From Puniceicoccaceae bacterium (GTDB taxonomy: Bacteria > Verrucomicrobiota > Verrucomicrobiia > Opitutales > Oceanipulchritudinaceae), in assembly GCA_040830765.1 (NCBI GenBank), contig JBFOMH010000004.1, positions 160,001-224,000 of the forward strand: 64,000 nt of DNA, read 5' to 3'. The position numbers were made by a program, and so were the translations under genes. The notes under the pieces were generated by a model. The model was not told the DNA's origin. It was given only the letters and a program-made list of their open reading frames with translations, and searched no databases. This document shows, piece after piece, positions 5,737-50,931 of this stretch (within the stretch, counting starts at the first letter, position 1; the number at the start of each line of letters is the position of its first letter).

Positions 5737-7275
5737 ATGAGCTCCATTCTCGAACAAATTGAAAAAGAGATCGCCTCGCTGACACCGGATGTCGGCAAGA
5801 CCAACACGGGTGTCATCACCAATGTAGCCGACGGCGTGGCCAAGGTTGAAGGCCTGTCCCAGGTCATGTTCAACGAAATGGTTGAATTCCCGCATGGCAT
5901 TACCGGTATCGCCCTCAATCTGGAGGAAGATGAAGTCGGTGTTGTCTGCCTCGGGGACGCCAACCTTCTCAAGGAAGGCGACGAAGCCAAGACCACCGGA
6001 CGCCTTCTCTCTGTTCCAGTCGGCAAGGAACTCCTCGGACGCGTTGTCGACGCCATCGGCAATCCGGTCGACGGCAAGGGCCCGCTCGATTCCAAGGAGA
6101 GCTATCCCATTGAAAAGATTGCCCCGGGCATCATTCCCCGCAAGTCGGTCGACCAGCCGCTGCAGACAGGTATCATGGCCATCGACTCCATGATTCCGAT
6201 TGGCCGTGGCCAGCGCGAATTGATCATTGGTGACCGCCAGACCGGCAAGACGACCATTGCCATCGACACCATCATCAACCAGGCGAAAATCAACCGCCAG
6301 GGTCTGGCTTCCGGTGATGAGTCCTTCCGTCCGGTCTATTCCATTTACGTTGCCGTTGGGCAGAAGAACTCGACCATCGCCCGCACCATCAAGGCCCTTG
6401 AGTCAGCCGGTGCGCTGGAGTACACCATTATCGTCATCGCCCCCGCAGCTGAGAATGCGGCCAACCTTTACCTGGCCCCGTTTGCCGGTTGCGCCATGGG
6501 TGAGTGGTTCATGCAAAACGGCATGGACGCGCTTATTGTCTATGATGACCTGACCAAGCAAGCGGCTGCCTATCGCCAGATTTCCCTGGTCCTGAAGCGC
6601 CCTGCCGGTCGTGAAGCGTATCCGGGTGACGTCTTCTACCTCCACAGTCGCCTGCTGGAGCGTTCGGCCCGCCTCAATGCGGATAACGGCAATGGTTCCC
6701 TGACGGCCCTGCCGATAATCGAGACCCAGGCCGGTGACGTTTCCGCCTACATCCCGACGAATGTCATTTCCATTACCGACGGACAGATCTTCCTCGAAAC
6801 CGACCTCTTCAACCAGGGCATTCGCCCGGCGGTCAGTGTCGGTCTTTCGGTTAGCCGGGTCGGGTCCGCTGCCCAGATCAAGGCGACCAAACAGGTGGCC
6901 GGCAAGGTCAAGCTGGAGCTGGCCGCCTATCGTGAGCTGGCGGCCTTTGCCCAGTTCGGTTCGGACCTCGATGCCCGTACCCGGCGCCAGCTGGACCGCG
7001 GTGCCCGTACGGTTGAGCTCTTCAAGCAGCCGGCCTACTCACCGAAACCGGTTGAAGTCCAGGTGGCTCTCCTCTGGTCGATGCAGAACAACTACTTCGA
7101 CGATGTCGAAGTGGGTGACATCGTCAGCGCCGCAGCCTCCCTGCAGGACTTCCTCGAAACCGGCAAGCAGGAGGTGCTTTCCGCCATCCTTGAGAAGAAG
7201 AAGCTCGATGATGACACCGAAGCAGCCCTCAAGGACGCCGTTGAAGCCTGGAAGTCGACCTACGCCTCCGCCTGA
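5737..7275 (+). CDS. atpA: F0F1 ATP synthase subunit alpha
   Basis: 'GDRQTGKT', '[19 protein letters not shown]'. Confidence 0.98.
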
Positions 7276-41761: not shown

Positions 41762-43273
41762 ATGAAAGTATCCACCAGAAGGAGAATGGGATTGCTCGGC
41801 GGCTTGCTGGTGTTCGTCTTGATGCTCCTCCTTTACAACCCTCAACCGGATCGCCCGGAGGTGGGTAATATGGCCGCCATCGCAGCGCTGATGGCCATTC
41901 TCTGGATTTTCGAGGCGGTTCCTCTCGCGGCCACGGCGCTTATTCCGATTGTCGCCTTTCCCCTGGCAGGGATTCTTGACAGCGGCATCATCGCCAAGGC
42001 CTACGTCAATTCCATCATTTTCCTCTTTATCGGGGGGTTCCTCATCGCCCTCTCGATGGAACGCTGGAACCTCCACCGGCGAATCGCGCTCAATATCATC
42101 TACCTCATCGGGCGGCGGGCGGACTTGCTCATCCTCGGCTTCATGGTTGCTTGCGGTTTCCTCTCGATGTGGATTTCCAACACCGCCACCGCTGTCATGA
42201 TGCTCCCGGTGGGCCTGGCCGTCATTAGCAAGATGGAGGAGGAGTTTGGTGGAGAAAGGGCGCATCCGGTCTCCCTCGCCCTGATGCTGGGCATTGCCTA
42301 TGGCTGTACCATCGGCGGGGTTTCCACCCTTGTCGGGACGCCCCCGAATCTTGCCTTTGTCCGCATCATCCAGGAATCCTTTCCCGATGCTCCGCCGATC
42401 ACGTTTGGCAACTGGATCATCATGGGGGTGCCGTACTCCATCGTGCTCCTGTTCACCACCTGGTTCTTACTAACACGGGTGCTTTGCCGCTTTGACAAGT
42501 CGCTCACGCTCGACCGTTCCATCCTGAGGGACGAGCTGAAGCAACTCGGACCCATGCGTTACGAGGAGAAACTCATCCTCGTGGTCTTTGCCTGTACTGT
42601 CTTTCTGTGGATCTTCCGCCGGGACCTCGATTTGGGGACTTTCACCCTGCCGGGCTGGTCAAGGCTTTGGGGCGGGTTTGATGCCGTTGACGACGGGACC
42701 ATCGCCGTCGCCATGGCCCTTGTCCTCTTCTTCCTTCCGGCTTCAAGGAATGAGCAAGCCAAGCGCCTTCTGGAAATGGATGTCTTCTCGCGTCTCCCCT
42801 GGGGGATCATTCTCCTCTTTGGCGGCGGATTCGCCCTTGCTTCAGGATTTTCCGCCAGCGGGCTTTCCCTCCACATTGGGGAATCCTTCCGGGCCCTGGG
42901 CGACATTCCGGTCCCCATCCTCCTGCTCGTCATCTGCCTCAGCGTGACCTTCCTGACCGAGCTGACCTCCAACGTGGCCACCATCACGATGCTCCTGCCG
43001 ATCCTTGCCGCCTGGGCCGCCAGCCTGCAGATGCATCCGCTCCTCTTTGCCATTCCGGCCACGATTTCGGCCTCCATGGCCTTTATGATGCCGGTGGCCA
43101 CCCCGCCCAATGCGGTCGTCTTTGGGAGCGGCCGCATCCGAATCGCCGAGATGGCCCGCACGGGACTCTTTCTCAACCTTTTCGCCGTCCTCCTGACCAT
43201 CCTCGCCGTCTACCTCTTCTTCCCCCTCGTCACTGGCGCGGCCATGGACAGCTTCCCGGCGTGGGCGAAATAG
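41762..43273 (+). CDS. SLC13/DASS sodium:dicarboxylate or sulfate symporter
   Basis: 'SMWISNTAT', 'GTPPN', 'TELTSN', 'PVATPPNA'. Confidence 0.92.
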   Translation: MKVSTRRRMGLLGGLLVFVLMLLLYNPQPDRPEVGNMAAIAALMAILWIFEAVPLAATALIPIVAFPLAGILDSGIIAKAYVNSIIFLFIGGFLIALSMERWNLHRRIALNIIYLIGRRADLLILGFMVACGFLSMWISNTATAVMMLPVGLAVISKMEEEFGGERAHPVSLALMLGIAYGCTIGGVSTLVGTPPNLAFVRIIQESFPDAPPITFGNWIIMGVPYSIVLLFTTWFLLTRVLCRFDKSLTLDRSILRDELKQLGPMRYEEKLILVVFACTVFLWIFRRDLDLGTFTLPGWSRLWGGFDAVDDGTIAVAMALVLFFLPASRNEQAKRLLEMDVFSRLPWGIILLFGGGFALASGFSASGLSLHIGESFRALGDIPVPILLLVICLSVTFLTELTSNVATITMLLPILAAWAASLQMHPLLFAIPATISASMAFMMPVATPPNAVVFGSGRIRIAEMARTGLFLNLFAVLLTILAVYLFFPLVTGAAMDSFPAWAK

Positions 43274-43403
43274 GGACCAAGGACGAAAGACTAAGGACCA
43301 AGGTCTCTTGGTTCATCGTCTGGCTGGAATAGTCCCTCCTGAAAATCCGTCTTGACCTCTACCTTTTCAGCTTCCTTAGTCCTTGGTCTTTGGTCCTTTG
43401 ACC
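43274..43403. repeat. two inverted tracts of RGACNAA heptamers
   Basis: GGACCAA GGACGAA AGACTAA GGACCAA at 43274-43301; TTAGTCC TTGGTCT TTGGTCC at 43376-43396. Confidence 0.7.
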
Positions 43404-43410
43404 ACCGGAA

Positions 43411-43484
43411 GCGGGCGTAGTTTAATGGTAGAACTCCAGCCTTCCAAGCTGGTCGTGGGAGTTCGATTCTCCCCGCCCGCACCA
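43411..43484 (+). tRNA. tRNA-Gly(TCC)
   Basis: Cloverleaf GCGGGCG.../CGCCCGC-ACCA; anticodon arm CCAGC-CTTCCAA-GCTGG; T loop GTTCGATT. Confidence 0.97.
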
Positions 43485-43574
43485 TGCTTCGTTCTTCGAA
43501 CTTCGCATGGCGCAGCCATGCAGAAGTGAGATTAGAACGAAGCATGCCCCGCGTAGCGCAGCGCAGCGTGGGCT
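43482..43574. repeat. structured REP-like element directly 3' of tRNA-Gly
   Basis: Hairpin CCATGC-TTC-GTTC-TTC-GAAC-TTC-GCATGG; longer inverted repeat ATGCTTCGTTCT...AGAACGAAGCAT; related hairpin in inverted orientation to about 43574. Confidence 0.6.
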
Positions 43575-43771
43575 AAGCAGGGGTCTACAACAACACGTGG
43601 GGCCCAGGCAAAATTTTTGGCAGAACATCGCCAGGCCCGGGATACTTTCCTGTCGACACCGAATTGGCTAAAAATTATCCTGATTCGAATTCGTTCAATT
43701 GGATAATCCCAGCTACGATCAAGCTGCGCACGGATTTTATCCATATCTCTCACAAATCAAAATCCGCACCC

Positions 43772-44836
43772 GTGAATAACTACAAACTGCCAAAATCGAT
43801 TTTCGCTAACACCGCTATCCTCATCCTGATTGCCCTATCCACGACCTTGGAAGCCCGAGACCGCGTCGAGGAGTATATCCGGGAGTATCCCAACCAGGAA
43901 CAGGTCAAGATGATGAACACATGGTTGGAAAATAATGAGAAGGGAACCTTCCAGTTCACCGGTCTTGTTGATCCCGAGGAGGGTACCGTGGTGACGCCCC
44001 AGGCGACGGTGAATTACGGGTACAACTGGTTTTCTGTCTCAGACGGGCCGGCGGTTATCCGCACGCCGCGCTACGACAAGTTCTTTTCGATATCGATCTT
44101 CGACATGAAGCACAATGTGCCTGCAGTCATTGTCGATCCTGAGAAGCCGATCCTCATCAATCGGCCGGGACAGATTATTCCTGACGGGGATTACCACATC
44201 GTTGACCTGGAGACGGACCAGGGACTCGTCCTGGTGCGCATGCTTGTTGTCGACAACGAGGAGGAGGTAATGGAACTGAGCTCCAAAATCGTCATGGAAG
44301 GCGGCAAGGGGGACATGGCCCGTGACGTCCAGCGCTTCTCCAAGGAAACGGAGGTGAACGCCCATACCGTTATCGATGCGGTGATCTCCTACGCGAATCC
44401 GGATGATGCCTTTGGAAAGGTTAGCGGCGACGTGAGTTTCCTCGACCTCGCCGCTGGGGTGAAACTGGGCCAACTGGGCACCCCAAAGGATACCGTCCGC
44501 TATGGGACTATCCTTACCGATGATGCAGGTCAGCCACTCAACGGAGAGGATACCTACATCGTTACGGTACCCGCGGGCCTGCACAAGGAGGGTGGGTACT
44601 TCTCCGTCACCCTGTATGGTGCTGACAACAAGCTCCTAATCCCGAACGAGATGAATCGTTATGACCGGACAACCTTCTCGTCCGAGCCGAACACCGACGG
44701 CACCTATACCCTGACCCTCAGCCCCAGCGGCGAAGGGAAAAACGCCATCCCCACCGGCAAACCCTTTTACGGCATCCTGCGGGCCTACGTGCCCAATCCG
44801 GATGCCAGCATGCGGGTTTTCGTGAAAAAGCAGTAG
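43772..44836 (+). CDS. secreted DUF1254/DUF1214-like protein
   Basis: Signal peptide, 'VVTP...Y', 'GYFSVTLY', 'NTDGTYTL', 'LRAYVP'; GTG at 43772 is the likely start. Confidence 0.75.
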   Translation: MNNYKLPKSIFANTAILILIALSTTLEARDRVEEYIREYPNQEQVKMMNTWLENNEKGTFQFTGLVDPEEGTVVTPQATVNYGYNWFSVSDGPAVIRTPRYDKFFSISIFDMKHNVPAVIVDPEKPILINRPGQIIPDGDYHIVDLETDQGLVLVRMLVVDNEEEVMELSSKIVMEGGKGDMARDVQRFSKETEVNAHTVIDAVISYANPDDAFGKVSGDVSFLDLAAGVKLGQLGTPKDTVRYGTILTDDAGQPLNGEDTYIVTVPAGLHKEGGYFSVTLYGADNKLLIPNEMNRYDRTTFSSEPNTDGTYTLTLSPSGEGKNAIPTGKPFYGILRAYVPNPDASMRVFVKKQ

Positions 44837-45022
44837 GGAGGCCCCGCCCGCACCATCCTTCGCGCCTCGCCCGCCTGCGCGGGATTGTAGATTCGGATGG
44901 CAAGCCACGGGTGGCCCCATTCAAAGAAGCTGTGATGAGTCATTTACTTTACTGGAATAAACTTTATTTAAACACAGTTTTTTTCCTTTACCCGTCTAAA
45001 CTTCCTCTATTTAAAGGAAAGG

Positions 45023-46189
45023 ATGAAACGCCGATCAAATCCCTTTCGTTATGAATTCATCGAGGAGGAGCCGGAAGTCATTGACCGGGTGAGTGAGCGT
45101 GAGCGGATCCGCGAGGCGCTGATGGAACCAGGGTCCCGGCTGCTGGTGCACGGGCGTCGCCGGATGGGGAAGACGACCGTCTGCAAGGCGGTGGTGAACG
45201 AGCTACGGCAGGCGGGCCAGGCGGTTTTACTGGTGGATTTCTCGACGGCGACGCAGCTGGCGGATTTATCTAATGCGCTGCTGGGGAAGATAACGGAGGT
45301 GCTGGGCAAGCGCTGGCAGGATTATGTCAGCGGCTTGATGAAGGCGCTGAGCCTGCAGCTGGAGACGGAGGTGGACGGCATGACGGGCAACATCAAGGTC
45401 CGGCTCAAGCCATCGGCCCGGAAGGCCCCGATGGATGAGCAGCGGTCGACCTTCATTGGCATTCTCAACCAGGCCAACGCGCTGGCCCGGGAAAAGGGGA
45501 CGCATCTGGGAATCGTCATTGATGAGTTCCAGGAGCTGGCCCGTTTCGAGGAAGAAGCGACCCTCTGGAACCTGCGGGGTGAAATCCAGCACCATGCGAA
45601 CATCAGTTACGTCTTCACGGGATCGCGGGTGCACATGATTCGGATCCTCATTTCCAGCGACCGGGCATTCTACAAGATGTTCGGGGTGGTGAATTTCGAT
45701 CCGGTTCCCGGAGACGAGATGGCGGACTGGATCGACTCAAAGTTCAAGGAGGCAGGCGGCGACCCCGGTGATGCGATCACGCGGTTGCTGGAGGTGGCGG
45801 AAACCTGCACCGTCGACCGCTTGAGGATGGCGGCGGTGTGCTTCACCATGGCCCAGGGACGTTCCCTGACCGAGGACATGGTCTTGAAAGCGAGGGCGGC
45901 CATTGTGGAGGAGGACCGGGCCTACTTCCACAGCGACTGGCAACAGATGACCGCCCACCAGCAGAATGTCCTCCGGGCCCTTGCTGAGGGGGAACGGCGC
46001 CTGACCAGCGAGGGGGTGCGGGAGCGATTCAGTCTGCCGACAAGCGGAAGCGTGACAAACACGCTGAAATCCCTGCTGGAACGGGGTATTTTGTATGAGC
46101 TGGAAACGGCACCCGGATATGCCTTCGACAATCCCTTCTTCAGGCAGTGGATCCGGATGCGGAACCGGGATGACCTGGGTTTGGGTTGA
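45023..46189 (+). CDS. AAA-family ATPase with C-terminal winged helix
   Basis: Walker A 'GRRRMGKTT', Walker B 'IVIDEFQ', C-terminal 'L..LLERGIL...FDNPFFRQWI'. Confidence 0.85.
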   Translation: MKRRSNPFRYEFIEEEPEVIDRVSERERIREALMEPGSRLLVHGRRRMGKTTVCKAVVNELRQAGQAVLLVDFSTATQLADLSNALLGKITEVLGKRWQDYVSGLMKALSLQLETEVDGMTGNIKVRLKPSARKAPMDEQRSTFIGILNQANALAREKGTHLGIVIDEFQELARFEEEATLWNLRGEIQHHANISYVFTGSRVHMIRILISSDRAFYKMFGVVNFDPVPGDEMADWIDSKFKEAGGDPGDAITRLLEVAETCTVDRLRMAAVCFTMAQGRSLTEDMVLKARAAIVEEDRAYFHSDWQQMTAHQQNVLRALAEGERRLTSEGVRERFSLPTSGSVTNTLKSLLERGILYELETAPGYAFDNPFFRQWIRMRNRDDLGLG

Positions 46190-46217
46190 AAGCAGGGCTC
46201 GAAAAAAACCTGGAGCG

Positions 46218-47111
46218 ATGTCCATGAATAGAAACAAGGGCAAGACCAAGCACCTCATCATCTTCGGTGAAGTCCTCTTTGACAACTTCCCGGATGGGAA
46301 GAGTGTACTTGGGGGGGCGCCATTCAATGTGGCCTGGTCCCTGAATGGGTTTGGCCGGAAACCGGTCTTTGTCAGTTCCGTTGGGTCGGACGCGAACGGC
46401 GCGGCCATCCGGGAGCAGATGGAGGCATGGGAGATGGACTGCGGGGGATTGCAGACCGACCCGGCGCACCTGACCGGTGAAGTCAGGGTTACCATCGAAA
46501 ACGATGAGCCCTCCTACGAAATTTGCACCGACCGCGCCTGGGACTTCATCGATGATGAAAAGTATGCCGCCGAAGGCCTGCTTTACCACGGCTTGCTGGC
46601 CCTGCGGAGTCCAGTCTCCCGCGCCACCCTGCAACGGATGGTTGAGCGGTCTCCGGCGCAGCGCTTTTTCGATATCAATCTGCGGCCTCCATATACGGAT
46701 CTTGATGTCCTGAAAAAATGGCTACATCAGACGGGCTGGCTGAAGCTGAATATCGACGAGTTGCGCCACCTCCTCGATGACGCCGGGATCACGCTGGAGA
46801 ATTGCGGGGAAGCCATCGACCAGCTGCGGGAGACGTATTCAATTGGCAACGTTGTCCTGACAGGCGGGGCCAGCGGTGCGGTGTTGCATGGGGATTATGG
46901 ATACGTTGCCTGCCTCCCGGCGCCCCAGCCGGATCCGTTTATCGATACTGTGGGTGCCGGGGATGCCTTTTCCGCCGCGACGATTGAGGGAATCCTGCTC
47001 GGGTTGCCAGCTGAGGAGATCGTCACCACGGCCAGCCACTTTGCTGCAAAAGTGTGCGGCCTGCGCGGTGCGACGACGACCAACCGAAGCTTTTACACTG
47101 CGGTCTATTAA
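46218..47111 (+). CDS. PfkB-family carbohydrate kinase (fructokinase-like)
   Basis: 'GEVLFD', 'GGAPFNVA', 'FDINLR', 'DTVGAGDAF'. Confidence 0.9.
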   Translation: MSMNRNKGKTKHLIIFGEVLFDNFPDGKSVLGGAPFNVAWSLNGFGRKPVFVSSVGSDANGAAIREQMEAWEMDCGGLQTDPAHLTGEVRVTIENDEPSYEICTDRAWDFIDDEKYAAEGLLYHGLLALRSPVSRATLQRMVERSPAQRFFDINLRPPYTDLDVLKKWLHQTGWLKLNIDELRHLLDDAGITLENCGEAIDQLRETYSIGNVVLTGGASGAVLHGDYGYVACLPAPQPDPFIDTVGAGDAFSAATIEGILLGLPAEEIVTTASHFAAKVCGLRGATTTNRSFYTAVY

Positions 47112-47132
47112 CCGCTGAATCCGGAGCTAAGG

Positions 47133-49871
47133 TCAGAGTGCCTCAACCCTGAGGCGCATGAACTGGCGGGCATCTGATGCGACCGGGTTGGCCATACGAA
47201 TGACCACGTCCTCGGTCCCGTCTCCATTATCGACAACGCTGTGCTCGACGATGTCCGAGGGTCCGGCAGGATCCCAGTTCTCGAGGTCGGTGGAGACTTC
47301 CACGGTGACGTCGAGTCCGGACAAATCCTGAAGGCGAGTAAAGGCGATGGCTGTGTGGGCCTGTTCGCCTATGACAATCCTTTGTGAATGCGGCCGGCAG
47401 GTGTCGGCGACATCCCATGGATCGCTTCCCATGGCGATTTCGGCAATATTATCCACCCCGTCATCATCGTAGTCCCCGCTTTCCGGGAGGACGGCGTAAG
47501 AGGCAGACTCCATCAGGGTGGGGGGGCACTTCCCGTTTTGGTCCCAGAGATCAAACATCTCCTGGCCCTTGGAGTTGGTGGTGTTTTCATCGCGCAGGAA
47601 CTCGATGAATTCCTTGCTCGTGCTCTGGTAGTAAAGCTTCACTTCGGCGCGGACCGCACCGGTCGGGACCACATAAGCGGGCTCGTCCCAGTACTGGTAG
47701 TCATCGTAATGGTGGCCCACCGGGGCACCACCGAAGGCCTCGAAGGCAGCGTTGGTGAATCCCCTTGGAGGGATGCGGTTGTCCTCGAAGACCTCGTTGT
47801 TGAGGACAAAATGAAGGGAGGGTCCTACCGGCAAACCGACCACGCCGGCAATGTTCTCGCCGATACCCGGATGAATCTCATAGACCGTGGCCTCGGCATC
47901 CTTGGTCAGGACACCGGTTGATGCATCGTAGGCGGCGGATTCGCCAATCAACGTATCGAGGGCGTCATAAAACTGCACATTGAGCCAGATGCGGCGGCCT
48001 TCCGGATAGCCGGTGGGCAGTTTGTGGCCAGTCTCGTTGGTGACCCGGACCACCAGTTTGCCGACCGACCCTTCCTGGGAAAGCGTGGCCGCGTTTTCCA
48101 GCATGTAGGTAGCCCGGGCGACCCCGGACATGACAGCCGCAAGGTCCACCTCCTCCGGATGGGCCGCTGCAATCAGCGGCGGTAACCAGGTTGAGCCACC
48201 GGTCATGTCATGGAGCGGCACGTCATCGCGGTATGGGGTTTGCGGTTCAAGGGTGGGATTGGCTCCATAACCGGCAGTATCGCGCATGTGGCAATCCTGA
48301 CAGGAGGAAACCATGCCACCTGCCTTGTTCCCGGCGAACTCGGGCGCGTAAACGCCCAGCGGTGTATTGTACTGGCTGTTCAGCCATTCGCTGTAAGTCC
48401 GTTCCACCGGTGCCATGGAGTGCGGTGAATAATCCGCATTTGGTGAATCAAAGGCATTTGGCTGATAAACCCCGAATTCATCCCGGTTGAAGACGGGATT
48501 ACTGACGTCATGGCAGGTTCCGCAGATGGCTGAACTCTGATGGAAGGGTGAGAATATCCATTCGTGTGCCGGTTGGGCGTCGTCGAACGGACCCCGCTGG
48601 ATCCCGGCGGGATCGATCACGTACATGCCGTTGCCATACTCGGGTGATCCGGGGAAGGGATTGTCCAGATCCGAAAGGACAGTCAGGTCGCGCAAGGGAC
48701 TGACACCCCCTTCATAATCCGGATCGACCATGCGGTGACAGAAGTCACAGGAGACCCCAATCATGTCATCATGCTCCATGGCGCCCCCGTCGGTCGGAAC
48801 CGAGCGTCCCTGCAGCCAGCCGTTGGAAATGTGGCAGCGCAGACAGAGGTCGCCCGAATCGGGCGCGTCCTGGTTGGCAATGGCCAGATTGGCCTCAAAC
48901 AGTGGATCAATGGAAGCCAGCGACATCATGCTGCCCTGCCAGTTGTAGTAGGGCTCCACCCCGGCGTCGTAATCGCCATGGCAGGACGCACAGTCCTCCG
49001 GGCTGGCTGCTTCCAGGCCGCCCTCGAAGGGTTGGGAACCCGGCATGTCAAAATCCCGCAGGGTGGTCGGGACAACGCCTCCGGGGGGTGAGACGATGGT
49101 AAAGACAGCATCACTGACATCCTGGGCCGCGTTGGTGAACTCGTCCACGGCCTCAATCCGGATGAGGGCTGTTGTTGTGGGCCGGTTGGCCGGGTGCCAG
49201 GTGTAGCTGCCATCGTTATCCAGCCCGAGTGCCAGTTGCTTGTAGGAGCTCCCGCCGTCCGTCGATTCCCAGATGCGCACGTCGACGACTTCATTTTCGT
49301 CGGTCGCTGTCCATGTGATGGTGGTGGCCTGGTTGGCGGTTAACACTTCTCCCCCGTTGGGCGACAGGACCGTCACCACAGGCGGGGTGTCATCCGTTTC
49401 CAGTGAAGGGGTCAGGTAAGGGCTGACTTCAGACAAGGGGATGTTGCTGACCAGACCCTTGTTGCTGTCGGAGAGGCCAGGAAAGGTTGGAATATTCGGA
49501 TAGCCCAATCCGGTGCCCGTCACTTCCAGCGCTGAACTGAAGGTATCACCATCCGAATCAAGGGAACCGAGGGTCGTGATGTTGGCCGGAATGTCATCCT
49601 TGTTGCCGACACCAAGGGTCTGCAGTGCCGCTCCATAGGGATTCAAGGTCCCGCCGCCGCCAAAGTCATAGTGACAGACCCCACAGTGGCCTGAGTTGCT
49701 TGGAAGATTGTCCAGTTGAGTCCCGACAACCGATGGATAGACCGAGAAAAAGTCACTCCGGATGGGCGGCTTGGCAAGGAGACTGGAGCCAAGCAGGGAC
49801 ACCAGAAGGAGTACCTGAAGCATGCGGCGGACAGGAATAAGCAAACAAAAAGGGGCTATGGCTGCGGTCAT
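47133..49871 (-). CDS. secreted multiheme c-type cytochrome (6 CxxCH) with Ig-like domain and C-terminal sorting-type tail
   Basis: CGVCH, CASCH, CLRCH, CDFCH, CGTCH, CQDCH; 'SPNGGE' Ig-like module; 'DYDDDG..N..E..MGSDP'; start at 49871 or 49823. Confidence 0.82.
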   Translation of the reverse strand: MTAAIAPFCLLIPVRRMLQVLLLVSLLGSSLLAKPPIRSDFFSVYPSVVGTQLDNLPSNSGHCGVCHYDFGGGGTLNPYGAALQTLGVGNKDDIPANITTLGSLDSDGDTFSSALEVTGTGLGYPNIPTFPGLSDSNKGLVSNIPLSEVSPYLTPSLETDDTPPVVTVLSPNGGEVLTANQATTITWTATDENEVVDVRIWESTDGGSSYKQLALGLDNDGSYTWHPANRPTTTALIRIEAVDEFTNAAQDVSDAVFTIVSPPGGVVPTTLRDFDMPGSQPFEGGLEAASPEDCASCHGDYDAGVEPYYNWQGSMMSLASIDPLFEANLAIANQDAPDSGDLCLRCHISNGWLQGRSVPTDGGAMEHDDMIGVSCDFCHRMVDPDYEGGVSPLRDLTVLSDLDNPFPGSPEYGNGMYVIDPAGIQRGPFDDAQPAHEWIFSPFHQSSAICGTCHDVSNPVFNRDEFGVYQPNAFDSPNADYSPHSMAPVERTYSEWLNSQYNTPLGVYAPEFAGNKAGGMVSSCQDCHMRDTAGYGANPTLEPQTPYRDDVPLHDMTGGSTWLPPLIAAAHPEEVDLAAVMSGVARATYMLENAATLSQEGSVGKLVVRVTNETGHKLPTGYPEGRRIWLNVQFYDALDTLIGESAAYDASTGVLTKDAEATVYEIHPGIGENIAGVVGLPVGPSLHFVLNNEVFEDNRIPPRGFTNAAFEAFGGAPVGHHYDDYQYWDEPAYVVPTGAVRAEVKLYYQSTSKEFIEFLRDENTTNSKGQEMFDLWDQNGKCPPTLMESASYAVLPESGDYDDDGVDNIAEIAMGSDPWDVADTCRPHSQRIVIGEQAHTAIAFTRLQDLSGLDVTVEVSTDLENWDPAGPSDIVEHSVVDNGDGTEDVVIRMANPVASDARQFMRLRVEAL

Positions 49872-50055
49872 TAGGTGGGCTTCTAGGGTATATAAAAAAT
49901 TTTTATAAACCACTGCTTATCAATTCTTTACAGAATTTAATACCCTGCTTCAAGCGAAAACCAAACCTGACTTGAAGGAGTCCGTTCAGGTTTTCTGCGG
50001 ATAGTCCATCCGCCGGGCCGCTTGCGATTTCAGGCAAACTGGCTGTACTTGTGAC

Positions 50056-50931
50056 ATGAAAGTACGGTTCATTTTCCAGGCGGTGACCTTGGTACTGGTC
50101 ACGACATTTGCAATCAGCGCTCAGGGTCGATTTGAAGATATTGAGTACTCGGTCACAGACCTGGGGCACGGTATTTACCGCCTGGAGGCAACTGGTGGGA
50201 ACATCGGGCTCTCCATCGGCGAGGATGGGGCTTTCCTGATTGACGGCCAGTATGCTCCCCTGACCCCAAAACTTCTGAAGGCGGTCGGCGACCTGACCGA
50301 CAAGCCGATAAAGTTCCTCATCAACACGCACTGGCACGGGGACCATGTCGGCGGGAATGCCAACATTGCTGCCACCGGGACTGTTGTTGCGGCACATAAC
50401 AATGTCCGCAGCCGGATGGCCGCACCCGGTCCCAAGCAATATCCAGAGGAAGCCCTGCCGGCGATCACCTTTTCCGATACCACCACCTGGTATATCAACG
50501 GATTAAAGATACATGCCTTCCATGTGGAGCATGCCCACACCGATGGGGACGCCATTATCCATATCCCGGAAGCCAATATCATCCATGCCGGAGATATACT
50601 CTTCAATGGGCTCTATCCCTATATTGATCTCGATTCCGGCGGTTCGGTTGACGGCTACATCGCCGCCATGGAGCAGCTCGCCGAGCTGGCCAATGAGGAT
50701 ACGCAAATCATCGCCGGGCATGGCCCGCTGGGCAACAAGGCCGACGTAAAGCGCAGCATCGAGATGGTCAAGGATGCCAAAACCCGCGTGGCGGCACTGG
50801 CCGAGGCAGGCAAGACCCTTGAAGAGGTCCAGGAGGCCGATCCCCTCGCGGATTACCACGATGACTGGGCCTGGCGGTTCATCACGGCGGAAAAAATGAC
50901 CGCCATCCTCTACCGGGACCTGACTGAATAA
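50056..50931 (+). CDS. MBL-fold metallo-hydrolase (secreted)
   Basis: 'THWHGDHVGGN', 'AHTDGD', 'IAGHG'. Confidence 0.9.
   Translation: MKVRFIFQAVTLVLVTTFAISAQGRFEDIEYSVTDLGHGIYRLEATGGNIGLSIGEDGAFLIDGQYAPLTPKLLKAVGDLTDKPIKFLINTHWHGDHVGGNANIAATGTVVAAHNNVRSRMAAPGPKQYPEEALPAITFSDTTTWYINGLKIHAFHVEHAHTDGDAIIHIPEANIIHAGDILFNGLYPYIDLDSGGSVDGYIAAMEQLAELANEDTQIIAGHGPLGNKADVKRSIEMVKDAKTRVAALAEAGKTLEEVQEADPLADYHDDWAWRFITAEKMTAILYRDLTE

Follow-up and report, generated by a model that had tools for sequence, protein, structure and literature searches.

Duplicated 3' end of tRNA-Gly(TCC) around a single DUF1254/DUF1214 gene in a Puniceicoccaceae genome, and its probable origin by site-specific insertion

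In a 64,000-nt stretch of a Puniceicoccaceae bacterium genome (referred to as the window; contig JBFOMH010000004.1, positions 160,001 to 224,000), a short segment with a single DUF1254/DUF1214 gene lies directly behind tRNA-Gly(TCC), the sole tRNA gene of the window, and the end of this tRNA gene recurs at the far side of the segment. The tRNA gene is intact with an encoded CCA (43411-43484, plus strand; found by ARAGORN and scored at 71.9 bits with the Rfam tRNA model). Its last 14 nt together with the next T, CCCCGCCCGCACCAT, are present as exact copies at 43471-43485 and 44842-44856. When at most one mismatch was allowed, these two were the only matches in the window (100 shuffled sequences gave a mean of 0.03 and never two or more), and the same two sites were the only ones in the whole 3,993,000-base genome, with 0 matches for the reversed pattern as a control. 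The duplication reported by the original prediction, which had been made from the letters of the window, is hence exact and genome-unique, and its caveat that the 15-mer might be common genome-wide did not hold. The 1,356 bp between the copies (43486-44841) hold one open reading frame (ORF), and the second copy begins 5 nt after its stop codon TAG (44834-44836), as had been predicted. Likewise, the statement that no integrase or transposase is near was borne out: none of the ten ORFs between 38.6 and 52.2 kb matched a mobile-element family of Pfam, the tyrosine recombinase family PF00589 had no match on the 303-kb contig of the window (C4), all five matches in the genome being on other contigs, and the serine recombinase family PF00239 gave 0 matches in the genome. 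Contigs of an independent DNA sequencing run (X4) span both junctions, at 43379-43831 and at 44600-45108, so that an assembly artefact can be dismissed. Structured stretches of one tRNA-trailer family, termed trailer A behind the tRNA gene and trailer B behind the second copy, follow both 15-mers, which explains that the similarity extends imperfectly for six bases past the 15-mer (20 of 21 identical). Two further candidate repeats were rejected. The exact 12-nt match at 6378-6389, located within a 512-aa ORF, is due to chance, and a loose resemblance of the bases just before the second 15-mer, near the stop codon, to the 5' strand of the T stem is too short and overlaps the native gene end.

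The same tRNA locus was compared in relatives, with one genome per species; the genome of the window is denoted G000 and its closest relative G010. Synteny with G010 runs up to 43488 (86.1% identity) and restarts at 44846 (88.7%), inside the second 15-mer copy. Between these boundaries G010 carries 2.37 kb instead of 1.36 kb, comprising two hairpins, a trailer and a gene for a 708-aa TPR protein on the opposite strand; the repeat at the same boundaries is only 10 nt long, and trailer B is retained ahead of the gene for an AAA ATPase. At the same tRNA, G007 carries a 15.3-kb element which ends in an exact 31-nt tRNA fragment and encodes a tyrosine integrase, an AAA_25 ATPase (possibly with a replication function), a type I restriction-modification system and a HigB/HigA-like toxin-antitoxin pair. 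It is followed in tandem by a single-gene cassette encoding a HipA-like protein, closed by a third, degenerate tRNA fragment. In G008 the HipA-like unit stands alone, ends in a 41-nt tRNA fragment and is followed by a gene for a protein with metallo-beta-lactamase fold, 64% identical in amino acids to the product of 50056-50931 in the window. The HipA units of G007 and G008 share 75.1% nucleotide identity and their flanks 70.5%; being about as diverged as its flank, the unit indicates that such cassettes can persist for long without moving. By this comparison it looks vertically inherited, and such units may be old. In G004 the tRNA and its trailer are separated from the AAA ATPase gene by 14 kb of other genes, and G006, G009, G011, G012 and G002 each have another sequence 3' of tRNA-Gly(TCC). 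Since the cargo differs across congeners, the interval from tRNA-Gly to the metallo-beta-lactamase-fold gene is a variable island at the level of the genus, corresponding to about 43485-50000 in the window. The distal tRNA-like stretch also differs across four elements (10, 15, 31 and 41 nt), which fits different attP sites and would not result from homologous exchange.

These comparisons agree with the predicted insertion of accessory cargo at a tRNA 3' end, as relatives hold different cargo between the same boundaries. A tRNA-anchored array, also considered in the original prediction, is found as tandem units in G007, while the window itself holds one bounded unit only. Similarly, the AAA ATPase gene, suggested to be an older cassette, does lie inside the variable interval (by DNA match, G010 and G004 have it in the same place and G007 on a different contig), yet the gene itself has no bounding tRNA fragment, as no third fragment was found downstream. 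The alternative that the segment is a decayed remnant of a larger island in relatives applies by half: an integrase-bearing island is present at the same tRNA in G007, and its content is unrelated to the cassette of the window. In the variable interval of G009 (L024:8874-9932), a protein with a prokaryotic STING domain is encoded (7.2e-15), adjoined by genes for a sulfatase, an extracytoplasmic function (ECF) sigma factor and a Ser/Thr kinase. The features of the window and the comparable units elsewhere in the genome are collected in Table 1.

Table 1. Features of the tRNA-Gly(TCC) locus (positions in the window) and units of G000 bounded by copies of a tRNA 3' end.
Feature	Location	Strand	Repeat and distance	Basis or content
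Na+/sulfate-type (DASS) symporter gene, conserved left flank	41762..43273	+		Pfam Na_sulph_symp 8.4e-74; syntenic up to the tRNA in G010, G009, G004, G008 and G007
Inverted repeat between symporter stop and tRNA, 24 nt, 88% complementary	arms 43274-43297 and 43373-43396			right arm conserved 5' of the tRNA in G010 and G007
tRNA-Gly(TCC); 3' end plus T is the putative attL copy (43471-43485)	43411..43484	+		ARAGORN, Rfam, pattern search
Trailer A, predicted structured tRNA 3' trailer, left end of the insert	43481..43590	+		copies elsewhere in the genome; RNA fold
Cargo gene, DUF1254/DUF1214	43664..44836	+		Pfam
Second 15-mer copy (putative attR), probably the displaced native 3' end of tRNA-Gly(TCC)	44842..44856	+		pattern search; synteny with G010 restarts at 44846
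Trailer B, probably the native trailer of tRNA-Gly(TCC), now detached	44852..44907	+		same type after tRNA-Gly(TCC) in G004 and after tRNA-Gly(CCC) in G000
AAA ATPase gene (AAA_22/AAA_16/ATPase_2), weak Orc1/Cdc6-like C-terminal match	45023..46189	+		Pfam
PfkB-family kinase gene (+) and gene of a 926-aa Big_7/multihaem-like protein (-), rest of the variable interval	46095..49913			Pfam; common to G010 only among five loci compared
Metallo-beta-lactamase-fold gene, conserved right flank where genus-level synteny restarts	50056..50931	+		64% aa identity to the G008 gene; tblastx blocks with G008 and G009
tRNA-Lys(TTT) unit	C3:105280-106822 (L060)		17 nt; 1,450 nt	AbiEii-like gene and one ORF
tRNA-Gly(TCC) unit	window		14-15 nt; 1,358 nt	DUF1254/DUF1214 gene
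tRNA-Ser(CGA) unit	C17:146637-150668 (L061)		14 nt; 3,928 nt	trehalase and alginate lyase genes
tRNA-Leu(TAA) unit	C33:22172-26074 (L062)		13-16 nt; 3,804 nt	genes of a GIY-YIG protein, a small ORF and a FG-GAP/LamG protein

A search for other units bounded by tRNA fragments, which the original prediction had proposed, was productive, as three more integrase-less segments were found in G000. Altogether, 4 of the 47 tRNA and transfer-messenger RNA (tmRNA) genes are followed within 4 kb by a perfect repeat of their last 13-17 nt, and none of the four units encodes an integrase. When the tRNA-Lys(TTT) locus was compared to five congeners, only the tRNA was matched, so that an empty site could not be scored. 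On contig C17, an orphan fragment of tRNA-Ser(GGA) (17 of 19 nt) with a native trailer lies 75.6 kb downstream of the tRNA gene, and two tyrosine recombinase genes are found 5-8 kb from tRNA-Ser(GGA); judged from this arrangement, C17:12566-88204 is a probable 75.6-kb island with the same attR anatomy as the tRNA-Gly unit. A gene for an integron integrase was detected on another contig (C18:426-1751, L063; TIGR02249 with 378.8 bits at a cut-off of 265), converging on tRNA-Gly(GCC). Because contig C18 begins 425 nt upstream of it, any attI site or cassette array there is unassembled, and two crude scans of G000 revealed no attC arrays.

The hairpin at the left end of the segment is not specific to the cassette, since it is part of a tRNA trailer of a kind that many intact tRNA genes have behind them. 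In trailer A the first bases pair with the CCA end of the tRNA, followed by a long hairpin and then a G+C-rich hairpin, with a predicted folding energy of -60.2 kcal/mol (z -6.05). Copies with 96-100% identity over 73-83 nt were detected in G000 right after tRNA-Pro(TGG) (twice) and tRNA-Met, and more diverged ones after tRNA-Leu(TAA), the tmRNA gene and a second tRNA-Met. In G010 the subtype to which trailer A belongs is found after tRNA-Pro(GGG) and tRNA-Met and not after tRNA-Gly, and trailers of the A type follow tRNA-Gly(TCC) in G006 and G009. The type of trailer B is found directly after the intact tRNA-Gly(TCC) in G004 and after tRNA-Gly(CCC) in G000; from its position in G004 and the homology to the sequence ahead of the ATPase gene in G010, the second 15-mer copy and trailer B probably represent the ancestral 3' flank of tRNA-Gly(TCC), displaced from the tRNA. 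In total, 20 of the 47 tRNA/tmRNA genes of G000 have a trailer within 75 nt, ending with TGGC, two or three bases and GCCA; the bases upstream in the trailer are paired to the CCA end plus one to three bases beyond it. The fourth pair is T-A in 16 cases, C-G in three and T-G in one, and the fifth G-C in 12 and C-G in three. When 41 genomes were searched for a strict form of this pattern, 33 sites were obtained, distributed over 10 genomes (8 of the 13 of the genus including G000, and two other genera), compared to 0 sites in the control. At every listed site of the strict pattern, a compensatory combination was read by eye. No match of the trailer family to Rfam was obtained. From these sequences, the trailers appear as a largely genus-specific family of structured tRNA 3' trailers with compensatory changes relative to the CCA end.

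Three of the four small GIY-YIG genes in G000 lie 150-300 nt behind trailers (C17:88353-88568, C27:88484-88699 and C33:25498-25710), and within the genus (loci L125-L154) 10 of 24 small GIY-YIG loci have the trailer 3' motif at most 600 nt upstream, compared to 0.027 expected per locus. Small GIY-YIG genes 150-400 nt downstream of trailers may accordingly form a mobile or functional unit tied to tRNA ends. The spacing is similar for the cargo gene of the window, which starts 254 nt after the trailer 3' motif, the GIY-YIG domain of the C27 locus starting 237 nt after it. One might speculate that trailers and GIY-YIG nucleases constitute a system targeting tRNA 3' ends, in which cleavage or pairing at the trailer promotes the integrase-independent capture of short foreign segments directly behind the tRNA. 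This idea is very unlikely to be correct in our view; if true, it would explain why G000 has four such compact units with tRNA fragments at their ends and no integrase.

The cargo protein contains the domains DUF1214 (1.2e-16) and DUF1254 (3.1e-13) according to Pfam. The listed ORF starts with TTG at 43664, and homologs align only from residue 36-66, for which GTG at 43772, giving an N-terminus resembling a signal peptide, is the likely start. Relatives in the PDB are only the uncharacterised Vibrio proteins 3u07, 3vb9 and 2p3y. No ortholog was detected in 40 relatives; the protein matched 2 of 41 genomes, namely G000 itself and one with a weak match (E 8.9e-4). Proteins with 60-75% identity were found at 29 genome loci and 53 metagenome loci, the hosts including Marinobacter, Rubripirellula, Synechococcus, Holophagae, Desulfarculaceae, Verrucomicrobiota, Bacteroidota and Nitrospirota. 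The cargo gene is accessory and horizontally spread. A closer donor was sought in metagenomes, where full-length matches reached at most about 74-75% identity. Only 2 of the 82 loci have a tRNA within the fetched flanks. The best homolog (75% identity), from Marinobacter sediminicola (L031, 7625-9774), starts about 200 nt after tRNA-Leu(CAA) and is accompanied by one lipoprotein-like ORF between this tRNA and queA-tgt-yajC-secDF; neither an integrase nor a direct repeat of at least 11 nt was found at this locus. A scan of the 29 genome loci for direct repeats showed the homolog of Synechococcus sp. MIT S9503 to be flanked by repeats of about 190 nt (L035, 7540-7725 and 9085-9270) and that of a Rubripirellula metagenome-assembled genome by a 17-nt repeat in similar hairpin-like elements (L032, 3886 and 5101). 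Neither looks like a tRNA end, both having the appearance of local intergenic repeats. In an RNA library (X2), contigs extend over 43641-44716 of the window, at most a weak hint of transcription of the cargo gene as DNA can occur in RNA libraries.

How did the segment arise? Probably, a site-specific insertion at tRNA-Gly(TCC) left a non-autonomous cassette flanked by attachment (att) sites, resembling a cis-mobilizable element (CIME), in the part of an additive flexible island nearest to the tRNA. The segment 43486-44841, consisting of trailer A and the DUF1254/DUF1214 gene, would have been inserted into the 3' end of the tRNA gene by site-specific recombination. The incoming DNA would have brought a 14-15-nt mimic of the tRNA end, whereby the tRNA gene remained intact (attL), while the native 3' end and trailer B would have been displaced 1.37 kb downstream (attR, 44842-44907). 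With both att scars kept and the recombinase absent, the unit would be non-autonomous, and the additive flexible genomic island would extend from the tRNA to about 50.0 kb. The junctions were, we infer, made by a tyrosine integrase, which was either lost by deletion or acted from another element.

Several observations speak against this explanation. No integrase, pseudogene or debris is present in the 1.36 kb, and with the cargo stop codon 5 nt from attR a decay by random deletion would have to be very tidy. A close homolog of the G007 integrase was not found in G000 (best 26% identity). The segment of identity is short with its 15 nt, and the HipA cassette shared by G007 and G008 has diverged about as much as its flank. 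Moreover, trailer A, with which the insert begins on the left, matches copies at other tRNAs of G000 with up to 100% identity, so the insert is not a simple foreign arrival; either trailer A is the product of a later conversion or insertion, or a congener was the source of the cassette. A metagenome scan for the empty-site/attR junction, for which a 22-nt IUPAC pattern allowed for the variants of both G000 and G010, had little power and gave 0 matches, and contigs of four public runs over 42000-47200 show no joints, although contigs could not reveal rare empty or circular forms. Capture in trans, one of the two readings of the original prediction, gained no direct evidence from these searches, as neither an excised nor an empty form was seen and G000 has no close homolog of the G007 integrase, the one integrase known to use this site; it may or may not have taken place.

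In its strongest version, capture in trans would mean a dedicated non-autonomous mobile unit, moved by a recombinase or nuclease encoded elsewhere in a tRNA-anchored, integron-like cassette system. That compact integrase-less units recur (four in G000, the TPR unit in G010, the HipA unit in G007 and G008), none of them with gene debris, would be expected then, and candidate factors acting in trans exist in G000 with the integron integrase, the two tyrosine recombinases on C17 and the trailer-linked GIY-YIG genes. However, the cassettes are oriented both ways, the DUF gene with the tRNA and the TPR and HipA genes opposite to it, unlike in integron arrays; an attC-like site is absent from the boundaries, and the two crude genome scans mentioned above found no attC array. 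A single dedicated enzyme fits poorly with a repeat length varying from unit to unit, the HipA unit seems to have been inherited vertically, and the contigs of the public runs contain no excised or empty form, all of which makes such a system unlikely.

An exchange of the cargo by homologous recombination with congener DNA, with the repeat being an older scar unrelated to the arrival of the gene, is similarly doubtful. The tRNA and symporter genes could have served as one arm and the tRNA fragment, trailer B and the AAA ATPase gene as the other, and indeed these flanks are 86-89% identical between G000 and G010 with the difference confined to the middle. The joining of a genus-endemic trailer A to a foreign gene, and trailers of the A type after the same tRNA in G006 and G009, would also fit an assembly within the genus. 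Crossovers outside the scars, however, would not give a distal tRNA-like stretch which differs right where the cargo starts (15 nt in G000, 10 nt in G010), and the scar still needs a site-specific event at some point. That the second copy is due to chance or is a relic of a tandemly duplicated tRNA gene, with native cargo, is hardly credible, for although CCAT and the trailer start, together 7 of the 21 similar positions, are accounted for by the consensus of the trailer family, the 11 bases before CCAT match the acceptor and T stem of tRNA-Gly(TCC) exactly, the 15-mer occurs at only two sites in 3.99 Mb, and the gene was not found in 40 relatives, with other cargo in G010.

The kind of feature is already known, and the site-specific insertion proposed here was compared to described systems. 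According to PMC4898812, additive flexible islands of Alteromonas and other marine bacteria carry direct repeats of tRNA downstream of cassettes; in common with them, a single tRNA site holds different cassettes across the genus with horizontally acquired cargo, the sequence 3' of the tRNA being different in G010, G004, G006, G007, G008, G009, G011, G012 and G002. Unlike the Alteromonas islands, the locus belongs to a different lineage, no identical cassette shared between species was seen, and the shared HipA cassette is core-like in its divergence. CIMEs are defined in PMC5704250 as att-flanked remnants of integrative and conjugative or integrative and mobilizable elements. The unit of the window keeps attL- and attR-like sites, which are intact by sequence, without integration and transfer genes, and the tandem of integrase element and HipA unit in G007 resembles CIME accretion. 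A CIME would moreover derive from such an element by decay and be mobilisable in cis after accretion with one; the unit of the window holds no remnant genes. Streptococcal CIME examples are far larger than the unit of the window. For tycheposons and Prochlorococcus islands, the preprint 10.1101/2020.12.28.424599 describes integration at tRNAs, newcomers pushing older elements distally, and a build-up of partial tRNAs and degenerated elements beside the tRNAs, with which the locus agrees. The tyrosine recombinase, AAA_25 ATPase gene and defence cargo of the G007 element are likewise tycheposon-like, whereas the unit of the window has neither a recombinase nor a replication module. Similar to integron cassettes, this unit contains a single gene without its own recombinase in a genome that encodes an integron integrase, but no RYYYAAC...GTTRRRY core was seen on reading 44837-45022, the repeat is a tRNA 3' end, the unit is on C4 and the sole integron integrase on C18, and the orientation is not uniform. 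Islands formed by tyrosine integrases at tRNA genes share the intact tRNA and the distal direct repeat of its 3' end and differ from the unit by having their own integrase.

The cassette is a clean example of tRNA genes as landing pads that gather flexible genes, in a poorly studied marine lineage, and it shows that species can diverge while retaining att-flanked units of a single gene that have no recombinase. The corrected reading of the hairpin as a tRNA trailer is the more useful outcome, as it may open a testable route to tRNA 3' processing or to a mobile element with tRNA ends as its target.

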